This document shows positions 2,324 through 20,109 of a stretch of 64,000 bases of DNA, piece after piece. Positions within the stretch are counted from its first letter, which is position 1, and each line of letters starts with the position of its first letter. The translations under genes were made by a program, and so were the position numbers. Under the pieces are notes generated by a model, which did no database searches, was not told the origin of the DNA, and worked only from the letters and a program-made list of their open reading frames with translations. Source of the stretch: an uncultured virus (IMG/VR IMGVR_UViG_2576861513_000002) (Duplodnaviria > Heunggongvirae > Uroviricota > Caudoviricetes); the IMG/VR virus record IMGVR_UViG_2576861513_000002. One strand, written 5' to 3'.

Positions 2324-3010
2324 ATGCATCTCTATAAATTTTTACCAACCGTTTATATGGAAAGTTTTTTCGAAACCGGATGTCTTCTATTGGGAACAGT
2401 TCATGATTTTAAAGATGTTGTTCGCCATGTCGGTTCTAGAGGGGATGATAATGAAGGGCTGCATAGGATAAGACGAGTCATTGATGAACCAGTGATTATT
2501 ACTGAGGGTAGCAATGAACCAATTGCATCTGAAATGTTTATTGTTAAATCAGGCGGGCGAACAATATTAAATACTGGCACAAAATTAACTCTTTCTAGAC
2601 GCGCCTCTGATTCGTTTTTATTTTGCACAAGTAATAAATATACAGAGGAGCTTTTCTTAAGATGGAATAAAGAAGATAGCAATAAGGACTCTTGCTATGT
2701 CATACATGATCCATTAGCCTTCACATCTGCTATAAGCAAAGTAATAAATAAATATGCACAAATAATTTATGACGGCCCAGTCGCCTACACTGATGACCCA
2801 ATACCGTATGATTCTCTTATATCAAAACTTGACCCACGCATAACTAAAAACAAAACAGAATTCTCTTGGCACTATGAGCATCGAACAATGTGGGCCCCTG
2901 TATTAGCCCCATATGTTAAGCTTTCGCCGTGGTTAATTCATGCGCCGGAAGCAAGAGAATTTTGTCGCCGTTATTCATCTTTAAAGAATGGGTCGATAAC
3001 TTATTATTAA
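2324..3010 (+). CDS. AT-rich prophage moron, hypothetical protein
   Basis: 228-aa ORF with AAGGA RBS, opposite strand to tail genes, followed by a hairpin. Confidence 0.75.
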   Translation: MHLYKFLPTVYMESFFETGCLLLGTVHDFKDVVRHVGSRGDDNEGLHRIRRVIDEPVIITEGSNEPIASEMFIVKSGGRTILNTGTKLTLSRRASDSFLFCTSNKYTEELFLRWNKEDSNKDSCYVIHDPLAFTSAISKVINKYAQIIYDGPVAYTDDPIPYDSLISKLDPRITKNKTEFSWHYEHRTMWAPVLAPYVKLSPWLIHAPEAREFCRRYSSLKNGSITYY

Positions 3011-4401: not shown

Positions 4402-5081
4402 TAGAGTATTGTCCCCCATGCTCCAACATCGAACCCGCCGATGTATTCGTTATCCATATCAAACCCAAAGAATTTAGAACCCTCGGATGGTGCTTCTACC
4501 GAGGGCGTTTCAACGTCACCGGCCCATACGCCAGCTGCTTTAACGGTGAGATAGCCCTGTTTGATAGCGGCGATCAGTTCGAGAGACACATCAGAAATAT
4601 CAGTCTCGGGAAAAACCCAGACCGAGATCGTCATGTCCTGGTTGTCGACGATTTGCATCTTCAGGCCAGAACCTGCGGTCGCAGCGTCAAGGATGGGTGG
4701 CAGCGAATCATTGCGGCCGTCCCAGTTGTTGATGGCGATTTTTGCTTTAAGAACGATGCGGTATGTCTCATCACTCAGAGTGGTGTAGCCCGCATCAGGA
4801 TCATACGGGCCTTGCCATACGCCCTGGTCATATCCGAGCCCGTCAGTGTCCCAGCTAAAATACACCCCGCTTATCGGCTGGCTGACGATGCGACTGCGAC
4901 CAATCCAGAGGCCAAGCGTATCGAGCTGGACGCCGACAGCGGTATCAATATCGAAAGCGCTTACCAGCCCCCGGGTGGCGCCGGTGATATCAATCAGTGG
5001 CCGCGTGCTCAGGTCAACGTGATCAAAAAATTTCGGCTTCGTGGCGTGATAGTTGGTGATTAGGTCCGTGTACTTGCTCAT
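4401..5081 (-). CDS. Baseplate wedge protein (DUF2612-like)
   Basis: FDIDTAVGVQLDTLGLWIG motif; lies between J and fibre. Confidence 0.88.
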   Translation of the reverse strand: MSKYTDLITNYHATKPKFFDHVDLSTRPLIDITGATRGLVSAFDIDTAVGVQLDTLGLWIGRSRIVSQPISGVYFSWDTDGLGYDQGVWQGPYDPDAGYTTLSDETYRIVLKAKIAINNWDGRNDSLPPILDAATAGSGLKMQIVDNQDMTISVWVFPETDISDVSLELIAAIKQGYLTVKAAGVWAGDVETPSVEAPSEGSKFFGFDMDNEYIGGFDVGAWGTIL

Positions 5082-6223
5082 GACGTCACCGTTAGAACAA
5101 TGTTTTCGGGTTTACACGACGCGGATTCGTTGTAGGCGATGATGATGTTTGCCGCCGCTACGCTACCGGCTGATTTGCCAATCAGCAGCTCCTGTATGTC
5201 GTAGTAGCGCGCATTGCCGCCACTCACTACGCCGAGGTTCGCCGGAGAATAAATCCTGCTCAGCAGCACATCGTCACCGATCGTCAGCCCGTTGATGTAA
5301 TCCGCGACAGCCTGCTGAATCTGTACGCCAATTTGCGACGTGTAGCCGTTGAATGCTTTCAGGGTGATATGTCCATAAATTGGCACATCAATAGACCGAG
5401 AAAAGCTGATCACGTGTGGATTGCCGTAGGTGTCCGGTACCGTGACAGAAGTTGTCCCGTAAGTTGCCGTTCCCTGCCCTTTGTTTCCCCGGATTGTCTG
5501 GGTTATTTCGGTAACATCCCCTCCATCGACGATGGCAGAAATGGAATGAGGCGGCAGCCCGTTGCTGTCGGTTGCACCAGTATCATTCTCGTAGAGCTTG
5601 TGACGCGTCACGCCTGCAACGTTGGCGATCGCACCGTCGACACCTTCAAACGGTGTGAGGGATGGTAGCGCTACGCTTTGCCCCTGCCTGATGCGCAGCT
5701 CTGCGTCCGTTTCAGCCGGTGCGCCTACGGTGGCCGCCGCCGGGTTGGTTACTGAAGCCCAGCCACGGGTCGGCGTGTTGATAGTGGTAATTGTCCCGGC
5801 CAGCGCCGCAACCGCTCCGCTGTTTGAACAGGTTGCAGTTACCGTCACGGTACCGCCGACACCGATTGTCACCGAGGCAGGAAGCCGCCAGATCACGTTA
5901 TTCGTGTCTTTCACGGTCCCGTTTGTGATGGATGTCCCGGCGGTACCGGTCAGAAGCAGATCCACGGTAGAGTTCGTCGCTCCCCGGCGCGCGATACCGT
6001 TAATTTTTACGTTACTCGTCAGTGCTGCACCGTAACCCGTAGCAGGTGAGAAGCAGTTATAAACGGAGATGGCCGTGTTGTTGGCATCGTGAATAGCCAG
6101 AGCCACCAGCGCCACCATCTGACCGTCTTTGCTGTCCGGCTCCAGATAAGCGTCACTGCCGTAAATCTGCTGGAAATAGCTTGTCAGGGTATCGAGTATC
6201 GTCTGGTAATCAGGCGCGCTGAT
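5078..6223 (-). pseudogene. Baseplate J-like gene, 3' part (interrupted by the satellite)
   Basis: Reads ISAPDYQTILDTLTSYFQQIYG...ETDAELRIRQ...; in-frame TGA immediately before ISAPDY; 5' part lies at 18911-18982. Confidence 0.92.
6207..6223 (+). repeat. Satellite att site (left)
   Basis: TAATCAGGCGCGCTGAT versus TAATCAGGCGCACTGAT at 18912-18928. Confidence 0.93.
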
Positions 6224-6316
6224 TCAATAACAATGATAATGTTATTGATATATATAGCTTTTATTTTAAAGGTAGTGAGAATCTAGTCCGTTAACTGTTC
6301 TTAGGTGTGCGAATTG

Positions 6317-6505
6317 CTATCTGCGAGGTGCAGGCTTACTCCAACGATATTCCGGGGCTGTCATGCGCTGGCGGTGCCTTTCCTTTGCGGCGAGCGCTCC
6401 TGCCACCCTGCGGCGTATCTCCAGCATGTCAGTAGCGTCTAAATCTCGCCCTTGCTTTGTTACCATCTCTGCTATTGCAGATTCGATTACATCAGATTTC
6501 AGCAT
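6317..6505 (-). CDS. Small basic hypothetical phage protein
   Basis: 62-aa ORF, co-oriented with the satellite genes. Confidence 0.65.
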   Translation of the reverse strand: MLKSDVIESAIAEMVTKQGRDLDATDMLEIRRRVAGALAAKERHRQRMTAPEYRWSKPAPRR

Positions 6506-6557
6506 GTAAGTTACTCATTACCAGAAGTGAAACTTAACGGCTACGGTCGCTCAACAT

Positions 6558-7082
6558 TCACCAGTACCGCCGGACAGTACTTAGCGAACATGACAGGCTT
6601 TCTGCTGCCAGCACCTGAGTTAATCCTGACCGTTTACAGCATTGTACCGCCTCACGCCGCTGCGCACTAATCCGCTCAAGACGTAGAGCACCATCAGTAA
6701 CCCGGCGCGTTCTCTGCTTTCGCTGCTCATGTCGAACTACCCGCTGCCTTTCCCTTTCCTCCTCTGCGGCTATCAGTATTTTTCTGGCCTCGATGTCTTC
6801 CGGGTAATTGTTGTACCAGTTGCGTTCGCGATACTGTGCTGGCCTGCTCCTGCTGAGTTTCGCTTCTTCCATCAGGCGCAGTATCACCCCATTGGCGGTA
6901 TCGCTGCGTGCTCTCAATTTCCTGACGGCTTTTTCAGAAACTCCAAAGTGAAAAGCCACCCGGTGATTACTCATAGCACGGTGCAGGTTCAGTACCGTGC
7001 GTAATACGTCAGTAAAGGTCTCCTCCGTCCACCAGATCCCCTTAAACCGGAAGCCATTTTCAGCGGCTGCTAAAACGTTCAT
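6558..7082 (-). CDS. Double-HTH DNA-binding protein; N-terminal HTH resembles helper TerS
   Basis: GAGG RBS; MSNHRVAFHFGVSEKAVRKLR and GLTQVLAAESLSCSLSTVRRYW. Confidence 0.65.
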   Translation of the reverse strand: MNVLAAAENGFRFKGIWWTEETFTDVLRTVLNLHRAMSNHRVAFHFGVSEKAVRKLRARSDTANGVILRLMEEAKLSRSRPAQYRERNWYNNYPEDIEARKILIAAEEERERQRVVRHEQRKQRTRRVTDGALRLERISAQRREAVQCCKRSGLTQVLAAESLSCSLSTVRRYW

Positions 7083-7352
7083 TTTTCCTCACTCTGTCCA
7101 CCATTGGCAAAAAACGGGACGTGCTCACGAACCCTCAAAAAGTCCGCGGCGTATCGATAACGGTAGAATGCGGCCTGCGCTCATGTGATATGCCGCACTT
7201 TGTCGGGCTACAGGCCGCGTCATTACTCATTTCTCCGCATTTTGTTGCTCACCCGTCCGGAAAGCGTGAAAAAGTGCGGTATTATCCAAAAATGGCTAGA
7301 TCGTCGCTTTCAGTCGATGAACCCGCATCACACCGGGAAAGTAAGGAGTTTA

Positions 7353-8378
7353 CTATATTCTCCTTACCCCTCCTCTCAGAGCGTTCTTGAGTGACGGTTT
7401 TTCGCGGAAAAGATGCCCGTAAATATTCAACGTCACCGACGGCCGGGAGTGGCCCACCATGTCCGACACGTCCAGAATATCAACGCCGTTTTTTACCAGG
7501 CTGGACACCGCAAAATGCCTCAGGTCATGAAAGCGCGCTATCCCGAATTCAGAGAGCAGGCGTTTCATCACGCCGGATGTGCTGTAGTTCAGGCTCAGCC
7601 TCTGTCCGTTGCTCCCGGCAATCAGCGGTGTATCCGTTCCCAGCAGCGTTTTATCGAGGCACTCATACAGGCCAACCGGCATATCGACGGAACGGCCCCT
7701 GCCGCGCTTTCTGCCCCGGATAATCCCGCGTGAAGTCAGATGGCAGCGAACCTGTATTTCGTCAGCGCTCACATCCCGATAGGTTAACGCCAACACTTCG
7801 CTGATACGCAGGCCGCAAGCCGCGCCCAGCCAGATAGCAATCCTTTCGCGCCGCTCTGCGCGATCCAGCATGGCTAACACGGTATCTTCATCCGGGATTT
7901 GCCACGGCCTGTCTGCCGGCGAACGGCTCTGACGAACCGGATTATGCGCAATCATCCCGGACCGCATGAGATAAGCAAAAGCCGCGCCGATGTACACAAG
8001 CGACTGTCGGTTAAGCCGCTCGCTAAGCTGGCGTGAAGTGATTTTATTCAGGTTTTTATTCAGCAGGTCAGACGGAAGGTTTAACAGGCAATAGCGGTAG
8101 CGGTCGTAACTGGTTGCCCTGATCCTGTTCCGGTTCAGCCTGTCACGCTGATATCCCAGCCAGAACCAGGAAAGTTTCTGCAGCGTCCAGCGTTTTACCG
8201 CCTCCGCATTGTCTGCCGTTCGCCAGTCGAGGGCTGCCACTTCCAGTTGATACAGCAGCGCCGCCGCATCGTCGATGCTGTGAAAGGTATTGCGTCGCCC
8301 GGTGCGGGTTTCTTTATCCAGCCAGTTAACGACATAACGCAGGCGCTTTCCGGCGCCAATCTCACGGATAGATGCCAT
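7353..8378 (-). CDS. Tyrosine recombinase, paralogue of helper 37363-38367
   Basis: GLRISE, HDLRH, GHS...YGH catalytic motifs; similar to the helper gene along its length. Confidence 0.9.
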   Translation of the reverse strand: MASIREIGAGKRLRYVVNWLDKETRTGRRNTFHSIDDAAALLYQLEVAALDWRTADNAEAVKRWTLQKLSWFWLGYQRDRLNRNRIRATSYDRYRYCLLNLPSDLLNKNLNKITSRQLSERLNRQSLVYIGAAFAYLMRSGMIAHNPVRQSRSPADRPWQIPDEDTVLAMLDRAERRERIAIWLGAACGLRISEVLALTYRDVSADEIQVRCHLTSRGIIRGRKRGRGRSVDMPVGLYECLDKTLLGTDTPLIAGSNGQRLSLNYSTSGVMKRLLSEFGIARFHDLRHFAVSSLVKNGVDILDVSDMVGHSRPSVTLNIYGHLFREKPSLKNALRGGVRRI

Positions 8379-8386
8379 GTTTCCCC

Positions 8387-8971
8387 CTACACACCCTGCA
8401 AAGGTAATTCCAGAGGACACCAGCTAAACACTGCTACCGGATGCTCATCGTTTCGCTGGCGGATCATGTTGATGAGAATATCCGCACGGGGTGATGACCT
8501 CATAATCGCGGCCAGCGTGGCTATTTTTGACGCCTCCGGGTTTCTCGCCTGATATTCGCCAATTTCAGCGCCCACAAGAGTTTTCAGCAATACATCGCCC
8601 TCCATGTCCGGATTTTCCCGCCGCATCTGGTCAAACTCTGCAGCGGCCGTCCGGCGGATAGGTATGTAAATCCGATCCTCTAAATCGCGTAATTTTCGGT
8701 GCGCATGCATCAGTACAGTGCCTCGTTTACCGCCCTCCTTCAGTTCCCCGAGTAATCCGGCGATGCGGCCACGAAATGCGGACACCTCGTCCTGTGGTAC
8801 AGGCGAATCAGGAATATAGCTCTCCAGAAGCGCTAACCTTGCCCGTATACGTTCTACAGCAGACACATTATTACTTACCGCTTCATCGGCCAGCACCTGC
8901 CTGTATGCAGGTAAACTTTCAATTTCCTGCGTATCAGAGCTGGTGTTTGCATTAGTAACACTATTTTTCAT
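8387..8971 (-). CDS. Hypothetical satellite protein
   Basis: 194-aa ORF ending 8 bp before the recombinase. Confidence 0.7.
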   Translation of the reverse strand: MKNSVTNANTSSDTQEIESLPAYRQVLADEAVSNNVSAVERIRARLALLESYIPDSPVPQDEVSAFRGRIAGLLGELKEGGKRGTVLMHAHRKLRDLEDRIYIPIRRTAAAEFDQMRRENPDMEGDVLLKTLVGAEIGEYQARNPEASKIATLAAIMRSSPRADILINMIRQRNDEHPVAVFSWCPLELPLQGV

Positions 8972-9165
8972 TTTAAGTTACCGTTCTCTCGGTCTGACAT
9001 TTAATACGGCTAACTCGATGGTTATTTTTTGCTCGTAAAACGCCATGAATCACCCAAATTAAAATGATACTAAATTGTTAACGCATATTCTTTTTGGGAC
9101 TATAAAAATGATTTTTATGTCTTTCCCATTGCATTTAGGACGTGTTTTAGAGAACTTGCTCTCAA

Positions 9166-9270
9166 GGTGTTCATGGTATTCATATTCGCGATATTAATCA
9201 TAATATTCATATAGATAAAGCATGAACACCAGTATTCATAACCCTTCATAAGTGTACATAGGTGTTCATG
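9166..9270. repeat. ATGAA(C/T)AC iteron cluster (crr/ori-like)
   Basis: Exact copies at 9167, 9176, 9222, 9232, 9262 plus variants, in AT-rich intergenic DNA. Confidence 0.75.
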
Positions 9271-9453
9271 CCCGCCGTTATTTACATAACATTTTATTAA
9301 CAGTAAATCCGTATGAACTTCTCTGCAATTGTCTTTCTACAATGGTGCTGTTGCTGTCGAGGTGTGGCTGGCTGTTTAAATCATCCTGCCATGTACGAAC
9401 ATTCTCTTTTTCTTCTGCCTCATGCTTTTGAGGCTTAATCTTTTCGATGTTAC

Positions 9454-10116
9454 TCATTGTGGTTTTCCTGTATTGCTTCCGCCGGACTGTACGCCGCCGT
9501 GAGTATGATTAACCTGGCTAATACCGTTAGCAGTCTGGTCGCCAGTGGAAGTTATCGAGCCGTTTACCTGTACTGGCCCGTTAAGGGTGATCTGTGGGCT
9601 GGTAATAGTGATAGCCCCACCAGCGGCCACTTCAACGAATGCCGAACCATCATCAGTGCGAAGTTGTGCAGCGCTGGTGCTGATACCGCTGATTTTTCGC
9701 GCCTGCGACTGCGGACCCGGTATAACGAACGCATCAGACAGATCCAAAACTCTCCCGTCAGCCCTCTCCTGTACACCGCCGTTCTGCCACCAGAAATCAA
9801 TACTACGCGACGAAAACACAATCAGGCATTCATCACCTTCTTTAACCGGGAAAGTCAGCGTAACGCCGCCACCGCGCGGGAAAACCACGGGCAAATCCTC
9901 AAGGATCGGATGGCGAACGGATTCATACTGGAAATCCTCAACCATTGTGCCGGCCTTTGTCATTCTTGCCGTAATGGCTATATCAACGTCGCAGGTGACA
10001 GTTTCCGGGTCGAATGAACGAATAACTCCGGGTAACGCATTGGTCACAGCTGCTTTGGCGTTATCCTGTACAAGCTGTGCTACATCCTGCTCGTCTGCAG
10101 GTCGAATGAATGGCAT
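9454..10116 (-). CDS. Satellite-encoded membrane-puncturing baseplate spike (Gp138/gpV-like)
   Basis: PVVFPRGGGVTLTFPVKEGDECL, IDFWWQNGG, C-terminal HTHGGVQSGG; paralogue of 19336-20091. Confidence 0.92.
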   Translation of the reverse strand: MPFIRPADEQDVAQLVQDNAKAAVTNALPGVIRSFDPETVTCDVDIAITARMTKAGTMVEDFQYESVRHPILEDLPVVFPRGGGVTLTFPVKEGDECLIVFSSRSIDFWWQNGGVQERADGRVLDLSDAFVIPGPQSQARKISGISTSAAQLRTDDGSAFVEVAAGGAITITSPQITLNGPVQVNGSITSTGDQTANGISQVNHTHGGVQSGGSNTGKPQ

Positions 10117-10125
10117 AGTCTCCCC

Positions 10126-10476
10126 TCACTCCTTCACGCGCTTACAATCAAATGTGCCAATTATCCGCCCCTGATTCAGGTTTGTGCGGATAAGCTCGAC
10201 GTTTAACCAATGCTTTTTGCTGCCGTCAGGATGAATATATTCAAACCCATACAGATTCCCATCACTAGCAGGCATGAGCGTCATCTCGACTTTCATTCCA
10301 TTTTGTCCAAGCTCAGTAATCTTTTGCGATGTGACCATTTCACCGTTTATCTCAGTCATTTCCCCTACTCTGGCAACCAGTGTAAAATTTCCACATTGAG
10401 TAGTTACGACGCTATTCGCTTCTGCCATACCGTTATATGAAATGACAACAGCCAGTAGGAAAAGTAGTTTTTTCAT
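10126..10476 (-). CDS. Exported (signal peptide) two-Cys protein, paralogue of 20570-20923
   Basis: MKKLLFLLAVV...AEA; shares QCG, INGExVTSQKI, LMPAxDGNxYGFEYI, IGxFxCKxV with the helper gene. Confidence 0.85.
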   Translation of the reverse strand: MKKLLFLLAVVISYNGMAEANSVVTTQCGNFTLVARVGEMTEINGEMVTSQKITELGQNGMKVEMTLMPASDGNLYGFEYIHPDGSKKHWLNVELIRTNLNQGRIIGTFDCKRVKE

Positions 10477-11573
10477 TCCGCTCCCCATCTATCATTTGTT
10501 GATTGTGAATATAGATCCGTATTGCCTCTCGCCTCGCACGCCAAATCCATATACCATGCTTGGCCTCGCGTGTCGCCTGTGTAACTGATATACCTGACCT
10601 TATACACACCATCAGTTGCTACACTGGCAGGCTGAGAAGTTGGCGGCGCTTCAATATATTGGCCTTTATCATCCTTGATATTTCCAATGGGGATAAGGTT
10701 GCCGTTTGTTTCTTTCTCAGAAAACCGCCCACTGTAAATATCCTGACGGGATAGCGCGGTACGATATACAGAAGCCTGATCCAGCTGAATGAGCCCGTTC
10801 AGGTGTATCTGTGGATTAATCAGACATTTGACATTAACACCTGCGCCGATTGTCTGTTGTGGCATGCCGATAAGCCCAGTATTAGCGTTAAGAACCACCG
10901 CTTCATGAGTCGCCTTGTCTCTGGAAACAATATCGACTTTTCCATAGTTGAATTTCCAGGTGGCTTTGCACTGCGCGGCCACTTCATCGAGATAGTTGTG
11001 AACATAGCCAAAAAGTGCTCGACCGCGAGGAAATACCGTTGGTGGAAATTCAGGAACAATACCGCGAGAAATACCGTAAGGCTCCAGATTGATCATTAGC
11101 GCCTCATAAATATCTTTCGTGGTATACCCCTTACTAATATTTGTGTTTATAAATGCGCTGGTAAATGCCTCCAAAGAATCACAGGCTTGCACCTGAATCC
11201 ACGAATCAACGCCATTATCTTTACCTGTCCAAGTAAAACGTATATCACCGCTGAAAATGACGCCGTGGTTTACACCGTTAACCTGTCCCACTTCGCTTGC
11301 TGATATTTCACGCGCGATACCCACATCACTCGCCCTTACATCCGGTGCAAGACCGTCATACCCCGTAATCATGACGATTTTTGCAAACTCACGTTGCATA
11401 ATCCGATTTTGCGTGTGCGAGGAAAGGTTGTAAATCTTAACAGTGGCTACAGCAGGCCATTTGTTATCGTTACGCTCTATTTGAAAAGTAACTTTGAAGT
11501 CACTCAGGCTGACCCCTTGCCCGTTCTCTCCCACAAGTTGTAGTTCGAAATGCCTCATCCAGTTTTTTGACAT
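10473..11573 (-). CDS. Satellite-encoded baseplate hub protein
   Basis: MSKNWMRHFELQLV...YTGDTRGQAWYMD; paralogue of 20926-21990. Confidence 0.88.
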   Translation of the reverse strand: MSKNWMRHFELQLVGENGQGVSLSDFKVTFQIERNDNKWPAVATVKIYNLSSHTQNRIMQREFAKIVMITGYDGLAPDVRASDVGIAREISASEVGQVNGVNHGVIFSGDIRFTWTGKDNGVDSWIQVQACDSLEAFTSAFINTNISKGYTTKDIYEALMINLEPYGISRGIVPEFPPTVFPRGRALFGYVHNYLDEVAAQCKATWKFNYGKVDIVSRDKATHEAVVLNANTGLIGMPQQTIGAGVNVKCLINPQIHLNGLIQLDQASVYRTALSRQDIYSGRFSEKETNGNLIPIGNIKDDKGQYIEAPPTSQPASVATDGVYKVRYISYTGDTRGQAWYMDLACEARGNTDLYSQSTNDRWGAE

Positions 11574-11596
11574 AATTGGTTCTCTATATTCAAAAA

Positions 11597-11621
11597 GAAA
11601 AAACCCGGCCTAATCGCCGGG
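11597..11621 (-). terminator. Intrinsic terminator upstream of the satellite hub gene
   Basis: CCCGGC-loop-GCCGGG followed by a T run on the minus strand. Confidence 0.65.
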
Positions 11622-11629
11622 CGTGAGAG

Positions 11630-12304
11630 TTAATAATGAGCATATGGGCGCATGTGCTTATCGATGGTTTTTTGTCTTTCCTTCTCATCGACTTTCTGCT
11701 GCTCCCAGTGCTGATCAAGCTGACGTTGAAGCTGAATGTTTTTATTCACATCAGCATCGAAATCCCGGCGCTTTTGAGCTGCTTCTTTAGCATTGATACT
11801 AGGGATATATGGTTTCGATTTGATGTTGTTCGCCTCCATGTATTCCCCGGCAATTTCCAGTAACGAGACAGCCTCACTCCGTGGAATATTGTCAGGCAAC
11901 GTATAGCCGGAAATGGCTTTCAGAACAGCAATGGGCACAAAGCGAAGTGCCTCAATGGCGATGTTTTCCGGGTTGCGTTCAACGCCAACCGTGAAATCTG
12001 GCACGGCTTTCCATACTGACTTGAGAAACTCAGCATGGGATTGAGGCGGCTGGCCTGAGCCTGCAGGCTGCTGATCGCCAGTTCTTTTCTTTAGCCGGTC
12101 TGCTGTTCGGTTAGCAGCTGCTGCACGATTTTCAGCGGCGATAATCCGATCGTTAGCCGCAGCCAATGCTCTCACGATGGATGTCATGAAATCAGCAGAT
12201 GCGGGGTCTGTAGGGAATTGAATCTCCGTATCATTATCAAAATTTGCAGTAATGATTACGCCAGATCCGGAAGGGGTCGCATTAAAGCGAGTCATGTTTG
12301 GCAT
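11630..12304 (-). CDS. Hypothetical satellite protein (coiled-coil segments)
   Basis: Long ORF; AGGA RBS before MPNMTRF. Confidence 0.7.
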   Translation of the reverse strand: MPNMTRFNATPSGSGVIITANFDNDTEIQFPTDPASADFMTSIVRALAAANDRIIAAENRAAAANRTADRLKKRTGDQQPAGSGQPPQSHAEFLKSVWKAVPDFTVGVERNPENIAIEALRFVPIAVLKAISGYTLPDNIPRSEAVSLLEIAGEYMEANNIKSKPYIPSINAKEAAQKRRDFDADVNKNIQLQRQLDQHWEQQKVDEKERQKTIDKHMRPYAHY

Positions 12305-12483
12305 GGTCAAATTGTCCTGTAACCTCGACGGGATTGTCGGTATGAATATTATACACGCAAACCATAAAATCAGATACAAAACATAACATCAACCACAAAA
12401 AGTGGTAAATAGGTGTAGAGTTCTGCTATTCTGTATTCGTGGGTACGGAATCCCCCACCGATTGCACAATCGTGATACTAAGC

Positions 12484-12515
12484 AAAGCCCGCGCCTTCCT
12501 TCGCGGGCTTTTTAT
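12484..12515. terminator. Terminator hairpin after the primase
   Basis: AAAGCCCGCG-loop-CGCGGGCTTT. Confidence 0.7.
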
Positions 12516-12519
12516 TTGC

Positions 12520-14862
12520 TTACTTCTTCGTCGGGTTGGGATAAGGCTGTGGCAGCCAGTCCTCAGCACTTCCTGAAAGTTCCACGTTGGTTACAACTCC
12601 TCGCGTCTTTCTCTCTTTCCGGTATTCGTGATTAAACTCGCGCATTGCGCTCTCCATGCCCTCAGCGAATTTATTAAGGGTTAGCGGCTTATCGAATCCG
12701 TTAGCCTCCAGAAAGGCCAGATACGCATGATAGAGATACACGCGCGGGTATAGTGGCGGATTGCGGTTCCCTACCAGCATTCCCGTACACTCTGACAGCT
12801 TTTCAAGGTATGCGCAGAAAGCATAAAGCGGGTCTGTTTTCTGTTTAACCTCCAGCGCTTCCTCACTGTTCCTCTGTTCCAACAAAAGCGCCCTTGCTTT
12901 CTCTGGATCAGAAAAGTTAGCCAGGAGCCGGCGGACAATAACCGGGATTTCTGCGGATATCTTTTCCGACAAATCGGGGTCTTTGTCTTCCTCTCGAACC
13001 CGGTTATTAAACTGAAAAATAACCCTACGGCGGGCAACGCCTCCGGCTCGTTCAGTGAAAATCATCGGAGTGTTGTTTGTAGCGACTACAACGGCCCTCA
13101 GAACGGCGGTGTACTGGTGTTCATGCTTCGGGTCAATCTCTACGGCATCGCCGCCCGTAATCGCTTTTATACCCGTTCCCTCGCCTGAATATTTTGGCTG
13201 GTCTGGTAGGGTTATCATACTTTTGCCTACGAACTGCGCCCGACCTCTGGCGCTATCCAGTGCGGCCATATTTCCGCTGGCCGTGTTGTGTTCGCCAGCC
13301 AGCATAGTAGCAATGTGAGTGAAAACGCTTTTGCCGCTACCTCCCTCCCCGGTTATCTCAAGAAAAAGCTGCCAGTCGTAGCGGTTCGCCAGCACCATAA
13401 AAAGCCCAGCGGCGATCCGCTTCATTTTAAGTGCGTCTCTTCCTGCTGTGTAACTTAGCCATTTATGGAAGTTTGGCGCATGGTCATGAAGGTTTTCACC
13501 AGGCTCCGGCGGCGTATAGATCACGCCGTTATCGTTAGTGAGCCAGTTGTGTAATGAATGCTGCGAGAAAGTCCCGGTTTCCATGTCGTACACGCCATTT
13601 TTGAACGGGATCAGGCTGCGGCGAGGTTGGCCCATAACCGGAATAACAATCTTCAACGCTTCAATAACGTTGTTTACTGAACGTTTGCTGAAATTAGTCT
13701 GATTTTCGTTGTAGATAGCTACCATTTCGCGGCTTAGTTCTAATGGTGCCGCTTTTATCCATACTCCTTCGCGGTACAGATACACAGCCTCGCTCTCTGC
13801 GTGAATGGCTATGCCCTCGTAGCGGTCTGCCAGCATCAGCGCTTTTTCATTATCCGCCATCTGGATCAGGTTGAGTTCTCCGCGCCCGCGCTTTTTACCG
13901 CCATCGACTACTTTAAGTTTTGCGCCCACACTTTCCCCCTCCGGCTGATACATCGAATCGTTAAATGCTGCTATAGCGGCTTCCAGTCCGTTTTGTCGGT
14001 GGTAGTCGTTCCAGTCCGCCTTGCAGTCCACAGGGGGCAAAGAAACCCAGCCAGCAACGGCTTTAGCGGCTTTCTCTGCACACTCCTTACCTGTGTTAAC
14101 TTTCACTTCTCCGCTTCTGTCACTTTCGGCGCACTGGTCATTATCTGCAGCAATGATGATCCACGCGTTCTGGTATTTTTTGCGCATCACCTGAGCAACG
14201 GGCAGCAGGTTCCCGGCGTCAATAGCTGCGATAATTGTCGCCTCAGTGCGGAACTGCTGAACCGAAAGCGCCGTTGCCAGCCCTTCGGCGATAATCACCG
14301 TTTCCGACGTTGCGCCGGAATTAACCACGCAAAAAGAGCCTTTCTTCACCGTTCCGGCCACCAGCCGCTTACTGCCATCAGGTTTAATCACCTGTGCGCC
14401 AGTCGCCGCACCAGCACCGTTTTTCAGCACCAGCAGCAGCGATCCGTCGGACAGCATCGGGAAGGGGCATTGAAGCCCCTTTGATGTAAGGTAAGCAGAC
14501 TGCCCCGGAGAGGCTTTCGCGGCCAGCGCCGCAACTTTCCCGGCGATATCCGTTTGAGGCTTCTCTCTGGCTTGCTTCGGTTCCGGCATAGGCAGCGACA
14601 TAGCTTCGGCCACCAGCTCAGCCGCTTCTCTCGGGCCGCACTGGTTGACCTTCATCACCAGATCCAGCCCAGTACCCGCACCACAGTGCGAACAGAAATA
14701 AGTTCCCCGGTTATCTTTATTGTCGAACCGGTAGCGAGTGTTGCCACCACACGCCGGACATGGCCCTTCTGCGCTGTTTGTAGGAATGGCAAGGCGCTCC
14801 ATAATTGCAGGCCAGTTATTATTAGCCCTGCTACGAATTTCATTAATGAAATTATCTTTCAC
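12520..14862 (-). CDS. P4 alpha-like primase-helicase
   Basis: Zn finger CPACGG...CSHCG, TOPRIM IAEGLATA / AADND, Walker A GEGGSGKS. Confidence 0.95.
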   Translation of the reverse strand: MKDNFINEIRSRANNNWPAIMERLAIPTNSAEGPCPACGGNTRYRFDNKDNRGTYFCSHCGAGTGLDLVMKVNQCGPREAAELVAEAMSLPMPEPKQAREKPQTDIAGKVAALAAKASPGQSAYLTSKGLQCPFPMLSDGSLLLVLKNGAGAATGAQVIKPDGSKRLVAGTVKKGSFCVVNSGATSETVIIAEGLATALSVQQFRTEATIIAAIDAGNLLPVAQVMRKKYQNAWIIIAADNDQCAESDRSGEVKVNTGKECAEKAAKAVAGWVSLPPVDCKADWNDYHRQNGLEAAIAAFNDSMYQPEGESVGAKLKVVDGGKKRGRGELNLIQMADNEKALMLADRYEGIAIHAESEAVYLYREGVWIKAAPLELSREMVAIYNENQTNFSKRSVNNVIEALKIVIPVMGQPRRSLIPFKNGVYDMETGTFSQHSLHNWLTNDNGVIYTPPEPGENLHDHAPNFHKWLSYTAGRDALKMKRIAAGLFMVLANRYDWQLFLEITGEGGSGKSVFTHIATMLAGEHNTASGNMAALDSARGRAQFVGKSMITLPDQPKYSGEGTGIKAITGGDAVEIDPKHEHQYTAVLRAVVVATNNTPMIFTERAGGVARRRVIFQFNNRVREEDKDPDLSEKISAEIPVIVRRLLANFSDPEKARALLLEQRNSEEALEVKQKTDPLYAFCAYLEKLSECTGMLVGNRNPPLYPRVYLYHAYLAFLEANGFDKPLTLNKFAEGMESAMREFNHEYRKERKTRGVVTNVELSGSAEDWLPQPYPNPTKK

Positions 14863-15077
14863 GGCATCACCTCGCCTACCAGATTAAATTCTTTGATAAA
14901 TCGTGATTCATTCAGAGTGCATGGAGATAAATAACCATCACGAATAAATGTCACTCTGTTGAATCGGTAACTTTCGACCGTCACAATATCTCCCCATCCA
15001 TCACGCCATTTATCGCCGTGTCTGATTTCAGGCTGAGTTAACCCGCTGGCAATTAAGCCAGATTTTTTCTTTTTCAT
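14859..15077 (-). CDS. DUF4222-like small satellite protein
   Basis: WRDGWGDIVTV...VTFIRDGY...C...RFIKEF; typical position before the primase. Confidence 0.75.
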   Translation of the reverse strand: MKKKKSGLIASGLTQPEIRHGDKWRDGWGDIVTVESYRFNRVTFIRDGYLSPCTLNESRFIKEFNLVGEVMP

Positions 15078-15080
15078 TGG

Positions 15081-15302
15081 TTACACCCCTGTATTCGGCT
15101 TGTAAGCGTCCCGAACTTTCACCAGCTCAATAATGCCGTCATGCAGTAGCGACATGACTGCACTCACTTTGCATGCCTCTGCGTGGCGTTCAGCGTCATT
15201 AGGAATGCTGTCGATCCACATACTCAGAACCGCCATAGCTTCTTCACTGGAATTAAGCGCACTTTCTGCATGAAGCAGGACTTCAAAAGGAATCTGTTTC
15301 AT
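15081..15302 (-). CDS. Hypothetical satellite protein
   Basis: Translationally coupled small ORF. Confidence 0.7.
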   Translation of the reverse strand: MKQIPFEVLLHAESALNSSEEAMAVLSMWIDSIPNDAERHAEACKVSAVMSLLHDGIIELVKVRDAYKPNTGV

Positions 15303-15493
15303 TTCTTATCTCCCTTACCCAATTCGGCAATTAATGCGCGGTGTATTTCATGATTGAAGTCACACGCAATGGAAATCAGGTTTAGAAGCGTGACAGAGCA
15401 TTCATCTGTGGCTTTCTCCAGAATAGTTTCGTAGAGCGATGCGGCCAGTGCAGATTTATATTCGGCCTGGATCAAACTGATTGACTCACGCAT
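15299..15493 (-). CDS. Hypothetical satellite protein
   Basis: Translationally coupled small ORF. Confidence 0.65.
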   Translation of the reverse strand: MRESISLIQAEYKSALAASLYETILEKATDECSVTLLNLISIACDFNHEIHRALIAELGKGDKK

Positions 15494-16364
15494 TAGATAC
15501 CTCCATTGCCAGGCGAGACTGAATCGCTGCGGCTTTGCTGCCTAACTGCAGATAGGTACGAGTTATCGCTGGGTTGCTATGCCCAAGCATTTCAGAGGCA
15601 ATTAAAAGCCCCTGCTCGCCACCGGCTGACATGAGGTTAAATGCTGCGATCTTCCGGCTTGAATAGGCACTTAGGCGCAATTTTGTATTGATAAAGCGGG
15701 TAAACCACGCCATCACGCTTTGGAGTTTTCGCCAGATGGTCTGGCGGGTAACGCTACCTTCCAGACACTGGCAACGGTTACTTTCGATTTGAGAGCGGGA
15801 AAATATCAGGTCGTCCTCTACCAGATTCCGATCCTGACGTTCGCGAAGCCGTTTGATGATGCCCGGCGGTAACTGTTTGGTGTCGTGCTTAACGTCTGCT
15901 TTAGCCACCAGCCCGAATACTATCGCCTGTTCTTCGTCGGTCATATCCGCTGCCAGCGCATCACAGTTGATGCTGTCCCACTTCATGTAGGCGATATGGT
16001 CAGCGGCAAGCCTCGCGGCGTCCTTGCGCTGCTGGCGCACGATTTCAATGCCTTTGCGGGTCGCCCGCGCTTCGGCAGCTTTGGTCTGTTTGGCAACGAT
16101 AATTGTCGCCTGCCCCGTTTCCCAATTGATGCAGGAATAGCGCAGGTTGCAAACGTCGCTGGTACGCCAGCCGGTTACGGTCGCAATGTCCCACCAGAGC
16201 AGCACCCAATCCGGTTGTGTCTGCTGTATGCGTTCGCGTAGCTTGCGCTGTTCGTCACGGTCATAAACTGGCGTCATTGTGCGACTGCCCTTTGTGCTTG
16301 CCGCTTTAACGACATTGCCGCGCAGTTCACGGGCTTTGGCTGTCAGTGTCTGGAGGTTAAACAT
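15486..16364 (-). CDS. Tyrosine recombinase-family protein
   Basis: TGWRTSD, YSSRK, LGHS...TYL motifs. Confidence 0.85.
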
Positions 16365-16602
16365 TGTGCACCTCCAGCATTTCCGGAGTCAGGAGGTTCA
16401 GGCCATAAGATCCACAGCCAGAATCACGCAGGCTGCTTTCAGTGCGGATTTTTGCGGCAAAGGTCAGATTCCAGCATGGAAAGGTATCGCGGGCTTCTTC
16501 TTCGGTATCAGCCATTGTGCGCAATACGATTGGTGTGCAGTCGTGTTTTTTCGGTGTGGCCAGAAACAGCCAGGTATATTTGGGGCAGGTTGGTTTAGCC
16601 AT
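16357..16602 (-). CDS. Icd-like host cell division inhibitor
   Basis: YTWLFLA...ADTEEEAR...LTFAAKIR; follows a C4-type RNA. Confidence 0.8.
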
Positions 16603-16655
16603 TTTAGCGGCTCCTATGTCGAATGAAGGAGTCTCGCCAGATGCTGCTAAACATG

Positions 16656-16734
16656 GGTGGCGAGACGTGACGGGGTTAGCAGACTGGTGACATAGAAACC
16701 AGCAGGCCGAAGCCTCCCCACCACGCCCCGCCAT
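16656..16734 (-). ncRNA. C4/CI-type antisense immunity RNA
   Basis: Cloverleaf-like ATGGCGGGGCGTGGTGGGG...CCCCGTCACGTCTCGCCACC; its loops CTATGTC and CTGCTAA are complementary to sites at ~16800-16822 and ~16615-16652. Confidence 0.8.
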
Positions 16735-16928
16735 AAATCGGGGGTATAGGTGAATTACGGGCGTAAAAATACCGCTATACGGAAATCAGCGGCTACCCGC
16801 TATGTCAGTCAGGCTGCTAAACCCGGCACCCGTTTTGTGAGGTGCGAAATAATCATAACCATGCCCGCCATGTTGACGCAAGCGCTTTATAACATCCGGC
16901 GAATTTTTCCGGGGAAAGAACCTCGCTT

Positions 16929-17032
16929 TATGAACACTATGAATACCCTATGAATACCTTAGATAAAGGTGTTCATAGCCTATCTATCTGATTTTTAATA
17001 CCTATATTCAAATCATGAACACTATGAATACC
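16929..17032. repeat. ATGAA(C/T)AC iteron cluster (putative satellite ori)
   Basis: Six copies at 16930, 16939, 16950, 16969 (inverted), 17015, 17024. Confidence 0.78.
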
Positions 17033-17172
17033 TTTGTGCATTTTTCTGCAAACATTCCACCGCCGCCCGATGAAATGCCTTTCTCTGGCTGGTGTAAGTT
17101 ACCGTTGCTGGCAACAGACAATAAAAAAGGCTTGCCCCTTTCGGTAACAAGCCCCGTCTATTTGCTCCGCTT

Positions 17173-17385
17173 TCATGCGGTACAGATCCCGCGCTTTTCA
17201 CTTTGTTTCCCGATCCACGCTTCAACCTCGTCACGATACCAGCAGTTACGGCCTCCCACTTTAAAAGGCATCGGAAAACCGTTTCCCTCATCTTTGAGGA
17301 AATCATAGAACGCAGAATCAGAACGGTAGCGAAGACGCGCTTTAACCTCGCCTTTAAGTAGTATTTCACTATTCGATTCAGACAT
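17173..17385 (-). CDS. alpA: AlpA-family regulator / excisionase
   Basis: FPMPFKVGGRNCWYRDEVEAWI. Confidence 0.88.
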   Translation of the reverse strand: MSESNSEILLKGEVKARLRYRSDSAFYDFLKDEGNGFPMPFKVGGRNCWYRDEVEAWIGKQSEKRGICTA

Positions 17386-17508
17386 AAAAACCTCCGTATA
17401 TATATGAATCAATTATAACAAATTTGAATAAAAAAGATACATTTCGGCGTTTGAATGGAATAAAAAAAAACTGGCATCTAGCCAGCAATAAACGTCGAGT
17501 TTTGAGGA

Positions 17509-18741
17509 CTAACCTATCAGCCTTAATCCTTTATCGCCCTTTGTCTCAAGCAGTTCTCCGCGCTCTGCGCTATCGACATAATCCCCCCACCACTGCATGA
17601 GCATACGCCGCTGTTCAAAGTAATCAGTACGATTGTAGATATTGCGGATCGCGTTCCTGCTTCTGTGAGCAAGTGCCGCCTCAATAACATCAGGGTTAAA
17701 CCCTTCTTCATTCAGCACAGTAGATGCAAGCGACCTAAGCCCGTGAGTAACTACCTCTCCGCTTAGCGATGTTTTATGAATAGCGATCTGCCCGGTACAT
17801 TTCCCAATCGGCTTATCTCCCTTTTTGCCGGAAGGAAAAATAAACGCCCCGCGCCGCCATTTTTCAGCATTGCGTAAAACAGCTATTGCTTGCGCGGACA
17901 GCGGTACAGCGTGTGGCCTTTTCCCCTTCATTCTTTCAGACGGAATTTTCCAAACAGCACTGTCTAAATCAATTTCGTCCCAAACAGCCAGGCGAGCCTC
18001 AGAGGGCCTTACCATCGTTAAAAGCTGGAAGTAAACACACAGCCTTATCGGCTCCCACATACTCAGCCCCAGCCATTCAGAAAGGAACACAGGCAATCTG
18101 CCTTTATCCATCACGGGCATTGGTACGCTTCTTTTGGCTGGGAAAGCCTTGCCGATTTTTAGCAGGCAATTATGGTCAATGACTCCGGTGTTTACCGCAT
18201 AATCCATTACCGAATTGAGCACAACTATCATCTTTTCCACAGAGGCGGGACGATCTGCAAACTCTCTCATTGCCTGAATTGTTGAGGCGGCATTCATTTT
18301 ATGTACCGGCTCGTCACCAAGAACACTATTCAGCGTTTTTAAAGCCCCCTCGTAGCCTCGAATTGTATTGCTGCGGATTCCCTCCGTGATTTTTATTTTC
18401 AGCCAGTTATCAGCGATAACAGAAAACTGCTGTGCATGTTTTTTCCGCTTGTCGCTGAGTTCTTCTTTTTTAACCTCATTCGGATCTATCCCTCTGGCAA
18501 CTTTCCTTCTGGCTTCTTCTCTCGCCTCTCTCGCTTCTGCGAGACTAAATTCAGGATATCGCCCAATAGTTAAGGTCTGCCTTTTTCCGGTTATGGGGTG
18601 CGCATAGCGGAATCGCCATGATTTCCCACCGGACTTAGTTACATACAGAAGGAGTCCAAAGCCATCATGAAGACTGTAATCTTTAAGCTGTGGCTTCGCG
18701 TTCTTAACTTCTGCGTTGGTAAGTGGTTTAACAAGCATCAT
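17509..18741 (-). CDS. int: P4-family integrase of the satellite
   Basis: DGFGLLLYV, GRYPEFSLAEARE, VRPSEAR, HGLRS, LAH...YNRTDY; adjacent to att. Confidence 0.96.
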   Translation of the reverse strand: MMLVKPLTNAEVKNAKPQLKDYSLHDGFGLLLYVTKSGGKSWRFRYAHPITGKRQTLTIGRYPEFSLAEAREAREEARRKVARGIDPNEVKKEELSDKRKKHAQQFSVIADNWLKIKITEGIRSNTIRGYEGALKTLNSVLGDEPVHKMNAASTIQAMREFADRPASVEKMIVVLNSVMDYAVNTGVIDHNCLLKIGKAFPAKRSVPMPVMDKGRLPVFLSEWLGLSMWEPIRLCVYFQLLTMVRPSEARLAVWDEIDLDSAVWKIPSERMKGKRPHAVPLSAQAIAVLRNAEKWRRGAFIFPSGKKGDKPIGKCTGQIAIHKTSLSGEVVTHGLRSLASTVLNEEGFNPDVIEAALAHRSRNAIRNIYNRTDYFEQRRMLMQWWGDYVDSAERGELLETKGDKGLRLIG

Positions 18742-18910
18742 CAGCCCCTTTCACTGCTTCCGCTGTGGTTTCTTTCGTAGTCCCACTTATGGCGAATTGA
18801 ACCCCAGATAGACGAATGCAATCGAATGGATTCAAACACCATAAGCAGGGACTAAACCCAGCAACACCGCGCTTTATTGAACGTTAACGTATTGATTCAT
18901 AGATATTAAA

Positions 18911-18982
18911 ATAATCAGGCGCACTGATCCCCTCAGCGGTTACCGTTGCCGATAAGCCGAGTGTGTCCAAATTGAGGGCCAT
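18911..18982 (-). pseudogene. Baseplate J-like gene, 5' 24 codons
   Basis: MALNLDTLGLSATVTAEGISAPDY; ATG abuts the stop of the upstream wedge gene; reads on into FNIYESIR-stop inside the satellite. Confidence 0.92.
18912..18928 (+). repeat. Satellite att site (right)
   Basis: 16/17 match to 6207-6223. Confidence 0.93.
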
Positions 18983-19336
18983 TTATGCCTCGCTGGTTAC
19001 TGTCGTTGTTCCGTAGATAGTGTCGATTTCAGCGAAGAACTGGACGCGGCGCGTCGTAGTGTTCACTGTCGTATTGAAAGAGAGAATGGATTTAACGCCC
19101 CGCGTTTCGAGGATACGCTTACGGATCGCCAGGTTGTAGGTTTCTGGCTTCTGTTTACCGAGTACGGACTGAATCCACGGTGTGCCCTCGGTAGTGTCGA
19201 GGAACCATTGCCCATACCATAATTCGAATCGCGTTTTTACCGCCTGGGCCACGGCCTCGGGTGAGTTAATCAGCCAGGTATCATCGCCGCTGCCAAAGGT
19301 GTAATCACCGTCGGCGTCTTCACGTCTGTATCGCAT
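18983..19336 (-). CDS. Baseplate wedge / sheath initiator (gp25/gp46-like)
   Basis: GQWFLDTTEGTPW motif; lies between spike and J. Confidence 0.82.
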   Translation of the reverse strand: MRYRREDADGDYTFGSGDDTWLINSPEAVAQAVKTRFELWYGQWFLDTTEGTPWIQSVLGKQKPETYNLAIRKRILETRGVKSILSFNTTVNTTTRRVQFFAEIDTIYGTTTVTSEA

Positions 19337-20091
19337 CAGTTTGGCGCTCCTGTATTACCGCCGCCGGTCTGTACTCCGCCGTGCGTATGCGTCATCAGAC
19401 TCTTACCACCGGCTTTTACATCGTTAGTCACCGTGACAGGGCCGAGCATCGTCGCGGTACCGCCACTTGCGCCCATACCCTGAGAGAGATTCCCGTTTAT
19501 TGTCACGTTCCCGTTAAGCGTGATAGTGGGTGATGTGATCGTGGTTCCTCCTTCTGCTGTCGCCGTCAGCGCGCCGGGGGTTTTAACCGTGATGTTATGA
19601 CCTGCGGCCACTTCAACAAACGCAGCGCCATCATCAGTGCGCAGCTGCGCGCCACTGGTGCTGATTCCGCTGATTTTCTGTGCCTGTGACTGGGGCCCGA
19701 CGATACAGAACGCATCCGATAAATCATGCACCCGGTCGTCGACAGGCTCCTGCACCCCGCCGTTCTGCCACCAGAAATCGATGCAGCGATCGGCGAAAAT
19801 CACCAGGCATTCATCACCAGCTTTAACCGGGAACGTTAGCGTGCAGCCGCCCCCGCGCGGAAATACCACCGGCACATCCACCAGCAGCGGGTAATTTTTG
19901 GTAACGCGGTTGCCGTCGTTATCGGTTTCAACAGAGCGGATAGCAGGCTGCACAACCGCCGTCACCGCGTCAGGGTCGAATGACTGAACGATTCCAGGCA
20001 AAGCGACGCGGATCTGGTTTTTTGTCGTGTCCCGCTCAGATTTGAATGTTTCGGCAAGGTCGCCGCTGCGGGTCTGGTCAGATACTGCCAT
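19336..20091 (-). CDS. Helper baseplate spike (Gp138-like)
   Basis: OB-fold motifs, beta-helix repeats, HTHGG tip. Confidence 0.92.
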   Translation of the reverse strand: MAVSDQTRSGDLAETFKSERDTTKNQIRVALPGIVQSFDPDAVTAVVQPAIRSVETDNDGNRVTKNYPLLVDVPVVFPRGGGCTLTFPVKAGDECLVIFADRCIDFWWQNGGVQEPVDDRVHDLSDAFCIVGPQSQAQKISGISTSGAQLRTDDGAAFVEVAAGHNITVKTPGALTATAEGGTTITSPTITLNGNVTINGNLSQGMGASGGTATMLGPVTVTNDVKAGGKSLMTHTHGGVQTGGGNTGAPN

Positions 20092-20109
20092 TTGGTAGGC
20101 TCCAGAAAG

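Follow-up and report, generated by a model that had tools for sequence, protein, structure and literature searches.

A helper-embedded PICI-type satellite in a contractile-tailed prophage, with its own lineage of baseplate hub and spike genes

The stretch of DNA analyzed here (64,000 nucleotides, hereafter the window; IMG/VR record IMGVR_UViG_2576861513_000002, an uncultured virus of the Caudoviricetes) holds an E217/Pam3-type prophage whose baseplate-J gene is split by a 12.7-kb element. Within this element, a cassette of three genes codes for a predicted baseplate hub (hub'), an exported protein (exp') and a predicted central spike (spike'), and each of them has a counterpart in the tail module of the surrounding prophage, hereafter the helper. 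A first reading of the window, made from the letters alone (the sequence-only reading), had singled out this cassette and proposed a novel type of satellite. There is good support for the anatomy and for the conservation of the family, but the element does not represent a new category. The genes of the cassette and their helper counterparts are given below by position in the window (aa, amino acids; ORF, open reading frame).

10473-11573, minus strand: hub', satellite baseplate hub, 366 aa
10126-10488, minus strand: exp', predicted exported small beta-barrel protein, 120-aa ORF, probable start at residue 5
9454-10116, minus strand: spike', satellite central spike, 220 aa, with N-terminal spike domain, beta-helix and Apex HTH motif
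9278-9457, minus strand: 59-aa ORF, known from satellite contexts only
11603-11622, minus strand: terminator-like hairpin and T run, located after the replication genes and before hub' (from a consensus scan only)
20926-21990, minus strand: helper hub, prophage copy
20570-21004, minus strand: helper exported protein, prophage copy
20132-20554, minus strand: helper 140-aa gene, between the helper exported-protein gene and spike
19336-20112, minus strand: helper spike, prophage copy
18983-19336, minus strand: helper gp25-like wedge, directly after the helper spike

The three satellite genes proved to be intact paralogs of the helper genes, as had been claimed, with full-length alignments at 55% (hub), 44% (exported protein) and 52% (spike) aa identity. 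Their proposed co-linearity with the helper region 19336-21990 stood as far as gene order is concerned, but the prophage has the additional 140-aa gene at 20132-20554. An exact 29-bp identity (10771-10799 = 21185-21213) and an HTHGG tip common to both spikes, likewise reported in the first reading, were found again, and at the DNA level the element resembles the remainder of the window (65-86%) in the cassette alone. The hub' protein matched PHROG 196 ('baseplate hub', E 1e-76), Pfam E217_GP41 (PF22759, 28.2 bits with a cut-off of 27) and the solved Pam3 hub (7yfz chain t, E 3.9e-9), and is assigned by family and by similarity to a solved hub as a predicted baseplate hub of the E217 gp41/Pam3 gp19 type. 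For spike', an N-terminal PF18352 domain (E 6e-37), a beta-helix (E 4e-5), a PF18946 GpV Apex domain (E 2e-7) with the HTH motif near the C-terminus, and matches to solved spikes (8eon_F and 3pqi, including E217 gp43) identify a putative central membrane-piercing spike of the phi92 spike/P2 gpV type. The hub' stop codon and the probable exp' ATG at 10476 overlap (ATGA), as do the spike' stop codon and the start ATG of the 59-aa ORF, and because of these overlaps hub', exp', spike' and the 59-aa ORF would form one coupled operon. The 59-aa ORF was also considered as a gp25 remnant, which was ruled out, as it has no similarity to gp25. A promoter scan returned fewer sigma-70-like sites than were found in shuffles, and therefore no promoter was inferred.

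The cassette belongs to a larger unit that interrupts the prophage baseplate-J gene at codons 19-24, a context absent from the sequence-only reading. The unit and its junctions are composed as follows (att, attachment site).

18912-18982, minus strand: baseplate-J 5' fragment, codons 1-24, prophage gene
18912-18928: att core repeat at the junction with the J 5' fragment, 17 bp
about 6224-18911, minus strand: helper-embedded satellite of the phage-inducible chromosomal island (PICI) type, 12.7 kb, all genes co-oriented with the prophage late genes
17509-18741, minus strand: satellite integrase, P4-type arm-binding tyrosine recombinase, 410 aa (Pfam Arm-DNA-bind_3 and Phage_integrase)
17173-17412, minus strand: AlpA/excisionase-like protein, 79 aa (weak Pfam Phage_AlpA match, E 0.007; Xis-like match)
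16357-16734, minus strand: Icd-like protein (NCBIfam phage_ICD_like, 63 bits, cut-off 25)
15486-16364, minus strand: second tyrosine-recombinase-like protein, 292 aa (Pfam Phage_integrase), 92-96% identical in related satellites
14859-15077, minus strand: DUF4222 protein, preceding the primase
12520-14862, minus strand: primase-helicase, 780 aa (Zn ribbon, Toprim, D5_N, DUF5906; PHROG 2249, E 5e-158)
11630-12379, minus strand: 249-aa protein, upstream of the cassette in several satellites, with homologs in L051, L064 and L162
6317-8971, minus strand: rest of the late zone, with a 194-aa protein, int2 (7353-8420), a 174-aa helix-turn-helix protein and a 62-aa protein
6207-6223: att core repeat at the junction with the J 3' part, 17 bp, one mismatch to the other copy
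5078-6223, minus strand: baseplate-J 3' part, codons 19-399, 89-93% identical to intact J (Pfam Baseplate_J)

The tail genes of the helper run from the tape measure (22882-25158) through Dit-like, plug, hub, exported protein, 140-aa gene and spike to the gp25-like wedge; baseplate J then starts at 18982, breaks after 24 codons and resumes at 6223, followed by DUF2612, the tail fiber and fiber-assembly genes. Residues 1-31 of the intact 399-aa J of relatives align at 18982-18890 and residues 19-399 at 6223-5081, the duplicated J codons being the 17-bp direct repeat. J, an essential wedge gene, is not rebuilt by the insertion, because an in-frame TGA lies directly upstream of the 3' part. With the exception of the split J, the prophage has the full gene set of an E217/Pam3-type myovirus, including a CI-like repressor, a Q-like antiterminator, lysis genes, terminase, portal, capsid, cement protein, sheath and tube.

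The element has an integrase at one end with an adjacent AlpA-like gene, both reading inward, its own primase/helicase module, a size of 12.7 kb and 17-bp att repeats, as Gram-negative PICIs do, and hub and spike are its sole virion genes. As in helper-embedded PICIs (HE-PICIs), it lies within a prophage late gene that is not restored, it is co-oriented with that gene, and all its genes are on the minus strand. Because a repeat-flanked integrase/AlpA/Icd-like/primase element is inserted in the helper J, co-oriented with the late genes, we classify it from its gene content and position as a helper-embedded PICI-type satellite; the description of a capsid-less satellite with alpA and primase genes and with intact, diverged hub, exported-protein and spike copies was accurate in this respect. 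Searches of the element ORFs with Pfam, PHROGs, NCBIfam and PADLOC returned no capsid, portal, Sid or Psu gene, in line with the first reading, and no terminase or Delta. Head, packaging, sheath, tube and lysis genes were missing among the same ORFs in Pfam and PHROGs, defense families gave no match in PADLOC, and a DNA comparison within the window revealed no cos or pac DNA shared by satellite and helper outside the cassette. The 249-aa protein had no family match in Pfam, PHROGs or NCBIfam. ORFs 84% identical to the AlpA-like one adjoin the integrase in L051, L064 and L162. Int2, the recombinase of the late zone, shares 45% identity with the tyrosine recombinase of the prophage (37363-38376, minus strand), which is located between the lysis genes and the terminase, and the block of 194-aa protein, int2 and helix-turn-helix protein also follows the spike in the IMG/VR locus L062. 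The possibility that the 174-aa helix-turn-helix protein is a copy of the putative small terminase of the helper (36516-37118) was rejected, as the two have no similarity.

The same element was found in other genomes. The nearest of the genomes examined (G001, flanks 92-97% identical) contains the same satellite-in-prophage composite, with an integrase 99% identical to that of the window, while in an independent isolate (X8) a single 14-kb contig, about 2.6% diverged, spans both junctions. In another isolate (X9) the similarity ends at 6201 and 18925, a few bases from the att repeats; its contigs break at both att repeats and at window 10771-10800, i.e., at the 29-30 bp shared exactly by the satellite hub and a helper hub, and its read depth (about 255-280) comes with no baseline and permits no inference of amplification or excision. 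G001 also has a second E217-type prophage with an intact J (L166, G001:C1:986000-1005999), whose DUF2612 protein and fiber are 100% and 92% identical to those of the window. No near full-length element was found in complete genomes of E. coli, solely pieces of the backbone and uninterrupted J sites, the latter in prophages.

Related elements use further late genes as integration sites, and the att sites in the family are baseplate J, the cement gene and the PF09950 capsid gene. The cement gene is split at about codon 5-8 (5' end) in G096/L162 and in L051, as visible in the translated junctions, by elements whose integrases are 62-63% identical to that of the window. L064, with an integrase 49-54% identical (partial sequence), is placed inside the capsid gene because capsid residues 129-311 follow the element. 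In the Rahnella, G432 and G339 elements no helper late gene was present on the sides examined. The Rahnella woolbedingensis element, found in a scan of species-representative genomes, codes for AntA, DUF4222, a DUF927 primase, a single-stranded DNA-binding protein (SSB), PerC, hub' (80%), exp', spike', a small terminase subunit and Abi_2; an integrase lies just upstream, chromosomal genes lie beyond the element, Dit, plug, gp25 and J are absent nearby, and an E217-type sheath gene (81%) is on a separate contig.

In order to define the contexts of the cassette, an IMG/VR scan was seeded with hub', and the resulting 67 loci were typed by tblastn/blastp with the window proteins. Loci were considered satellites based on primase, DUF4222, 292-aa recombinase, p73, p59 and p62 markers and the lack of gp25/J after the spike, and prophages based on a downstream gp25; upstream Dit and plug could not be used as a prophage mark because larger satellite cassettes carry both. 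This gave 16 satellite loci, 45 with the prophage order through gp25, and three cut before spike/gp25 (L071, L072, L089). L054, L061 and L063 have no clear context and are of satellite type solely by their position in the hub and spike trees. As an unbiased sample, 401 species genomes of the family were screened, 51 of which had a hub homolog (E <= 1e-20). In 33 of these 51 the context was examined, over longer flanks and with gp25 downstream taken as the prophage mark, and a satellite-type copy was present in five (G001, G432, G339, G096 and G194), the rest being of prophage type except for three unresolved at contig ends. Intact copies are present in G001 and G432. The hub of G339 is intact as well, and exp and spike were not recognized after it. 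The G096 hub is split, with an interruption of about 1.9 kb in exp; the G194 hub has an internal stop, and no spike accompanies it.

Altogether, about 24 related elements with differing integrases carry the cassette, which recurs, linked to a primase and with no gp25/J downstream, in Rahnella, in IMG/VR loci and in five genomes of the unbiased sample. Its size is graded: besides hub-only forms, there are hub-exp-spike (window, G001, Rahnella, L049-L053, L055), Dit-plug-hub-exp-spike (G432, L063, G096) and, with the tape measure protein (TMP) added, TMP-Dit-plug-hub-exp-spike cassettes (L054, L056-L062, L064-L066). In L050, a homolog (37%) of the helper tail-completion/Neck1 protein lies directly upstream of the hub (9433-9966). 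The idea that satellite tape measures are shorter, as in the Vibrio cholerae PICI-like elements (PLEs), was dropped, since satellite TMPs (666-694 aa) and prophage TMPs (634-714 aa) overlap in length.

The satellite copies form their own lineages. A quick IQ-TREE search was run on 67 representatives of 95 distinct hub sequences, after 28 near-identical prophage rows (>= 96%) had been dropped. In the resulting tree, 18 of the 19 satellite-context hubs and three of unknown context fall into one clade (Shimodaira-Hasegawa-like approximate likelihood ratio test, SH-aLRT, 95) that contains none of the 38 prophage representatives; the G339 hub falls among the prophage hubs, which indicates a second capture. 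All 18 satellite spikes, together with two of unknown context, likewise form one clade in the spike tree (58 rows, SH-aLRT 98) with no prophage copy inside, and satellite spikes have an N-terminal motif, M-(A/P)-x-(I/A/V)-R-P, that is absent from prophage spikes. Ratios of nonsynonymous to synonymous substitution rates (dN/dS, Nei-Gojobori, unsaturated dS) were 0.06-0.20 for the hub (0.13-0.14 for hub'), 0.06-0.18 for the spike and 0.03-0.48 for the exported protein, so that the check proposed in the sequence-only reading points to purifying selection on hub and spike in related elements. By these sequence comparisons the cassette is not a chance capture but a satellite-specific lineage of tail-tip genes that has long been kept.

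HE-PICIs were described by Tommasini, Mageeney & Williams (2023) at 14 sites in lambda-cognate late genes, with four zones and capture of late genes (PMC10111431). The element shares with them the order of integrase, AlpA, (regulatory genes), primase and late zone, the co-oriented position inside a prophage late gene that is not restored, helper late genes and a helper-like recombinase in the late zone, and the use of several late-gene sites by related integrases. HE-PICI late zones carry extra helper-like integrases according to the published text (PMC10111431), which int2 matches. An integrase of the 11capE-related clade and a doubled DNA motif around attP are further traits of HE-PICIs, and the integrases 49-63% identical to that of the window in two other late genes would be in keeping with such a membership. 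Here, however, an E217/Pam3-type myovirus serves as the helper, insertion is into baseplate J, cement and the PF09950 capsid gene, and the captured genes are a satellite-specific hub-spike lineage. The main text of the HE-PICI study makes no mention of baseplate, hub, spike or myovirus; its gene-profile table lists tail genes in some PICIs, and this supplement has 'baseplate' three times, with rows including a fis PICI with P2-type V/U/J/I genes and, separately, a longer composite element (PMC10111431).

In function, the element resembles the PLEs. The TMP and hub of PLE11 replace those of ICP1 in PLE virions, as reported from mass spectrometry and western blots, and PLEs are presented as the first known case of satellites building chimeric tails (PMC12987554, Nature 2026); a figure legend of that paper notes tmp genes in PLE-like elements and in capsid-forming PICIs (cf-PICIs). 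Like a PLE, the element is a satellite of a contractile-tailed phage with central tail parts of its own (in PLE11 the TMP, the tail assembly chaperone TAC and the hub BhuB), and its relatives also carry a TMP, together with Dit-like and plug genes, on a retained PICI backbone. In contrast, it comes from an unrelated satellite family and host, PLEs being chromosomal and parasitizing a lytic phage; all PLEs have tmp and tac, neither of which is present in the window's element, and no central spike is reported for PLEs. The chimeric tail of PLEs was demonstrated experimentally, while that of the window's element is proposed by us. PLEs are marked by tmp/tac, a Vibrio host and ICP1 as helper; by these marks the element is not a PLE, and its likeness is functional only. 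With cf-PICIs it shares a PICI backbone that has acquired a set of virion genes to serve its own particles, but cf-PICIs encode heads and packaging and borrow whole phage tails, whereas the present family has no head genes and solely the central core of the tail; capsid, portal, protease, connector and terminase were not found in the element with Pfam and PHROGs. It resembles P4-like satellites in its P4-family integrase, primase and AlpA-like gene and differs from them in that the helper is not P2-like and that the searches returned neither Psu, Sid or Delta nor a cos-linked module, Delta/Ogr and epsilon being absent among the element ORFs in Pfam, PHROGs and NCBIfam. The claim of a novel satellite type was overstated, given the published HE-PICI late-gene capture (PMC10111431) and PLE chimeric tails (PMC12987554). 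Our search of full-text literature, whose coverage leaves out subscription journals and figures, found no PICI-type satellite with its own hub and spike.

In contractile tails, the hub-spike complex nucleates the baseplate, and wedges, tape measure, tube and sheath are added afterwards. We favor, with moderate confidence and by analogy, the reading that a satellite integrated in the J gene of an E217/Pam3-type prophage builds chimeric tails on its own hub-spike core, and we infer both that these proteins enter tails and that the satellite benefits. The P4-type integrase would have inserted the element at J codons 19-24, facing as the late genes do. Upon induction, excision would restore J, satellite hub and spike trimers would form the central core, and helper wedges (gp25, J, DUF2612), fibers, tape measure, tube and sheath would assemble on it. 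In the resulting tails, the part driven into the recipient envelope would thus be specified by the satellite; the P2 spike is delivered to the periplasm upon contraction (PMC12407873). The satellite might gain a separate route of tail nucleation and assembly that tolerates sabotage of the helper core, as in PLE11, or entry into cells, such as helper lysogens, that exclude the helper's own tip. The hairpin upstream of hub' (a consensus match only) and the Q-like antiterminator of the helper would fit late, helper-dependent expression.

Several points weigh against chimeric tails. Two RNA runs with the same species label had no reads on the stretch and are no test of expression. The model does not account for the pairing of satellite-tipped tails with heads that contain the satellite, a gap that is acknowledged for PLEs as well. 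The trees come from quick searches and have SH-aLRT values as their sole support, and the satellite clade is over-sampled because most satellite loci come from the hub'-seeded search; some satellite calls rest solely on a p62 or p59 homolog after the spike and a missing gp25, those for L057, L058, L060 and L066 on p62. Decayed copies, or relatives missing the cassette, had been named in the sequence-only reading as grounds for doubt, and this was found in part: of the five copies of satellite type in the unbiased sample, those of G096 and G194 are decayed, although most copies are intact.

The cassette might alternatively act by interference only, i.e., satellite hub and spike would co-assemble or compete with those of the helper, spoil its tails and cut its yield, with no use in satellite particles. 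Identities of 52-55% to the helper copies could permit mixed, defective trimers, and helper tails are already delayed by the element splitting J. Inhibition of tail assembly by PICI/P4 cargo is known from the Tai systems (PMC11364771), and Rta of PLE11 inhibits tail assembly (PMC12987554). However, a pure poison needs neither a co-inherited hub and spike pair nor the whole TMP-Dit-plug-hub-spike set, and the satellite itself needs tails, which is why we regard interference as unlikely.

Two further explanations concern the exported protein. Proteins of its family (PHROG 3443, which exp' matches) have roughly 110 aa and are encoded between hub and spike in most such prophages and satellites; a signal peptide and an invariant Cys pair are present in 38 of 38 aligned homologs. 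The structural model (predicted local distance difference test, pLDDT, 88.5) consists of one (signal) helix and an eight-stranded beta-barrel. No match was obtained in Pfam, NCBIfam, PADLOC or PDB sequences, the Atlas returned solely unnamed or 'secreted protein' clusters, and Foldseek gave no match for the model at E <= 0.001. The best VIA-align matches were avidins (Z about 8) among generic beta-barrel matches, and PliC (Z 6.6-6.7), examined in a PliC/MliC comparison, falls inside the generic small-beta-barrel band, with no Pfam or PDB sequence match. Between L053 and L055 the exported protein is 68% identical, in contrast to 96% for the hub and 97% for the spike; between the window and G001 it is 69% and the spike 96% identical, and a block at 10250-10750 with 61-63% DNA identity lies inside flanks of 93-100%. 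The alignments thus indicate that the exported gene exchanges alleles independently of the flanking genes.

The T4 Spackle protein and the Ltp lipoprotein of TP-J34 are analogs for an exported protein that blocks entry, and the exported protein here could be an exclusion factor. The hub-spike module might then be the site of an arms race over exclusion, in which the exported beta-barrel would block tails with a cognate core, the satellite would keep a private hub-spike lineage (in relatives also TMP-Dit-plug) to pass the helper exclusion, and its exp' allele would shut out rivals. Because its attachment site lies in the helper prophage, the satellite must enter helper lysogens. We give this explanation only a small chance.

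Slightly less probable still, the exported protein would be the selected cargo, for instance a periplasmic superinfection-exclusion or envelope-modifying factor, and hub' and spike' would persist mainly as its flanking operon. The signal peptide, the Cys pair, the modeled small beta-barrel and the independent allele exchange (L053 vs. L055; window vs. G001) all suit such a cargo. On the other hand, hub and spike are under dN/dS of 0.06-0.2 with frames intact in most elements, the G339 satellite retains a hub with no recognizable exp or spike, and no defense family was matched.

Passive capture, in which helper late DNA was acquired by recombination near the integration site and, being functionless, is now being lost, appears quite improbable. 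HE-PICIs do take late genes near their integration sites (PMC10111431), and the cassette is of variable size with some decayed copies; nevertheless, the DNA identity to the resident helper is only 65-86%, the satellite hubs and spikes each cluster apart in the trees although the elements bearing them differ in integrase, primase and site, and both genes are under purifying selection. That the element is no satellite but the rearranged or decaying remains of another prophage, joined to the first one, is very hard to credit: three recombinase genes and several tail genes do lie within 13 kb, but the J junctions are precise with a direct repeat, the integrase-AlpA-primase organization is that of PICIs, there are no sheath, tube, head or lysis genes, and the same unit occurs with different flanks.

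If chimeric tails are indeed built on the satellite core, the family would offer a tractable enterobacterial system in which to study the means by which satellites bias tail assembly and the part played by the tail tip in entry and exclusion. The family suggests that the chimeric-tail strategy arose independently in PICI-type satellites of Enterobacterales, where it reaches the central spike, and it extends helper-embedded satellites from lambdoid to contractile-tailed prophages. All tail parts in the cassettes come from the central core (tape measure, tube-base proteins, hub and spike), with no wedge, fiber, tube or sheath gene, and the graded sizes, from hub to TMP-Dit-plug-hub-exp-spike, represent a natural dissection of the tail parts that are worth owning.

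The helper prophage and its surroundings show several additional features.

1167-1530: ssrA, which the prophage adjoins
51223-52395, plus strand: prophage integrase

The 140-aa helper gene at 20132-20554 has a hydrophobic N-terminus, is absent from the otherwise 95% identical helper of G001 and looks like a variable moron. At the end of the prophage, a low-GC ORF of 228 aa (2324-3010, plus strand; PHROG 13198) lies between a fiber-assembly gene and ssrA. Beyond the prophage integrase (window 51223-60300) there is a second P4-type integrase (52640-53950, plus strand), followed by a low-GC block (31-36%) that includes a 994-aa ORF with no PHROG match, and this is probably a further tandem island.

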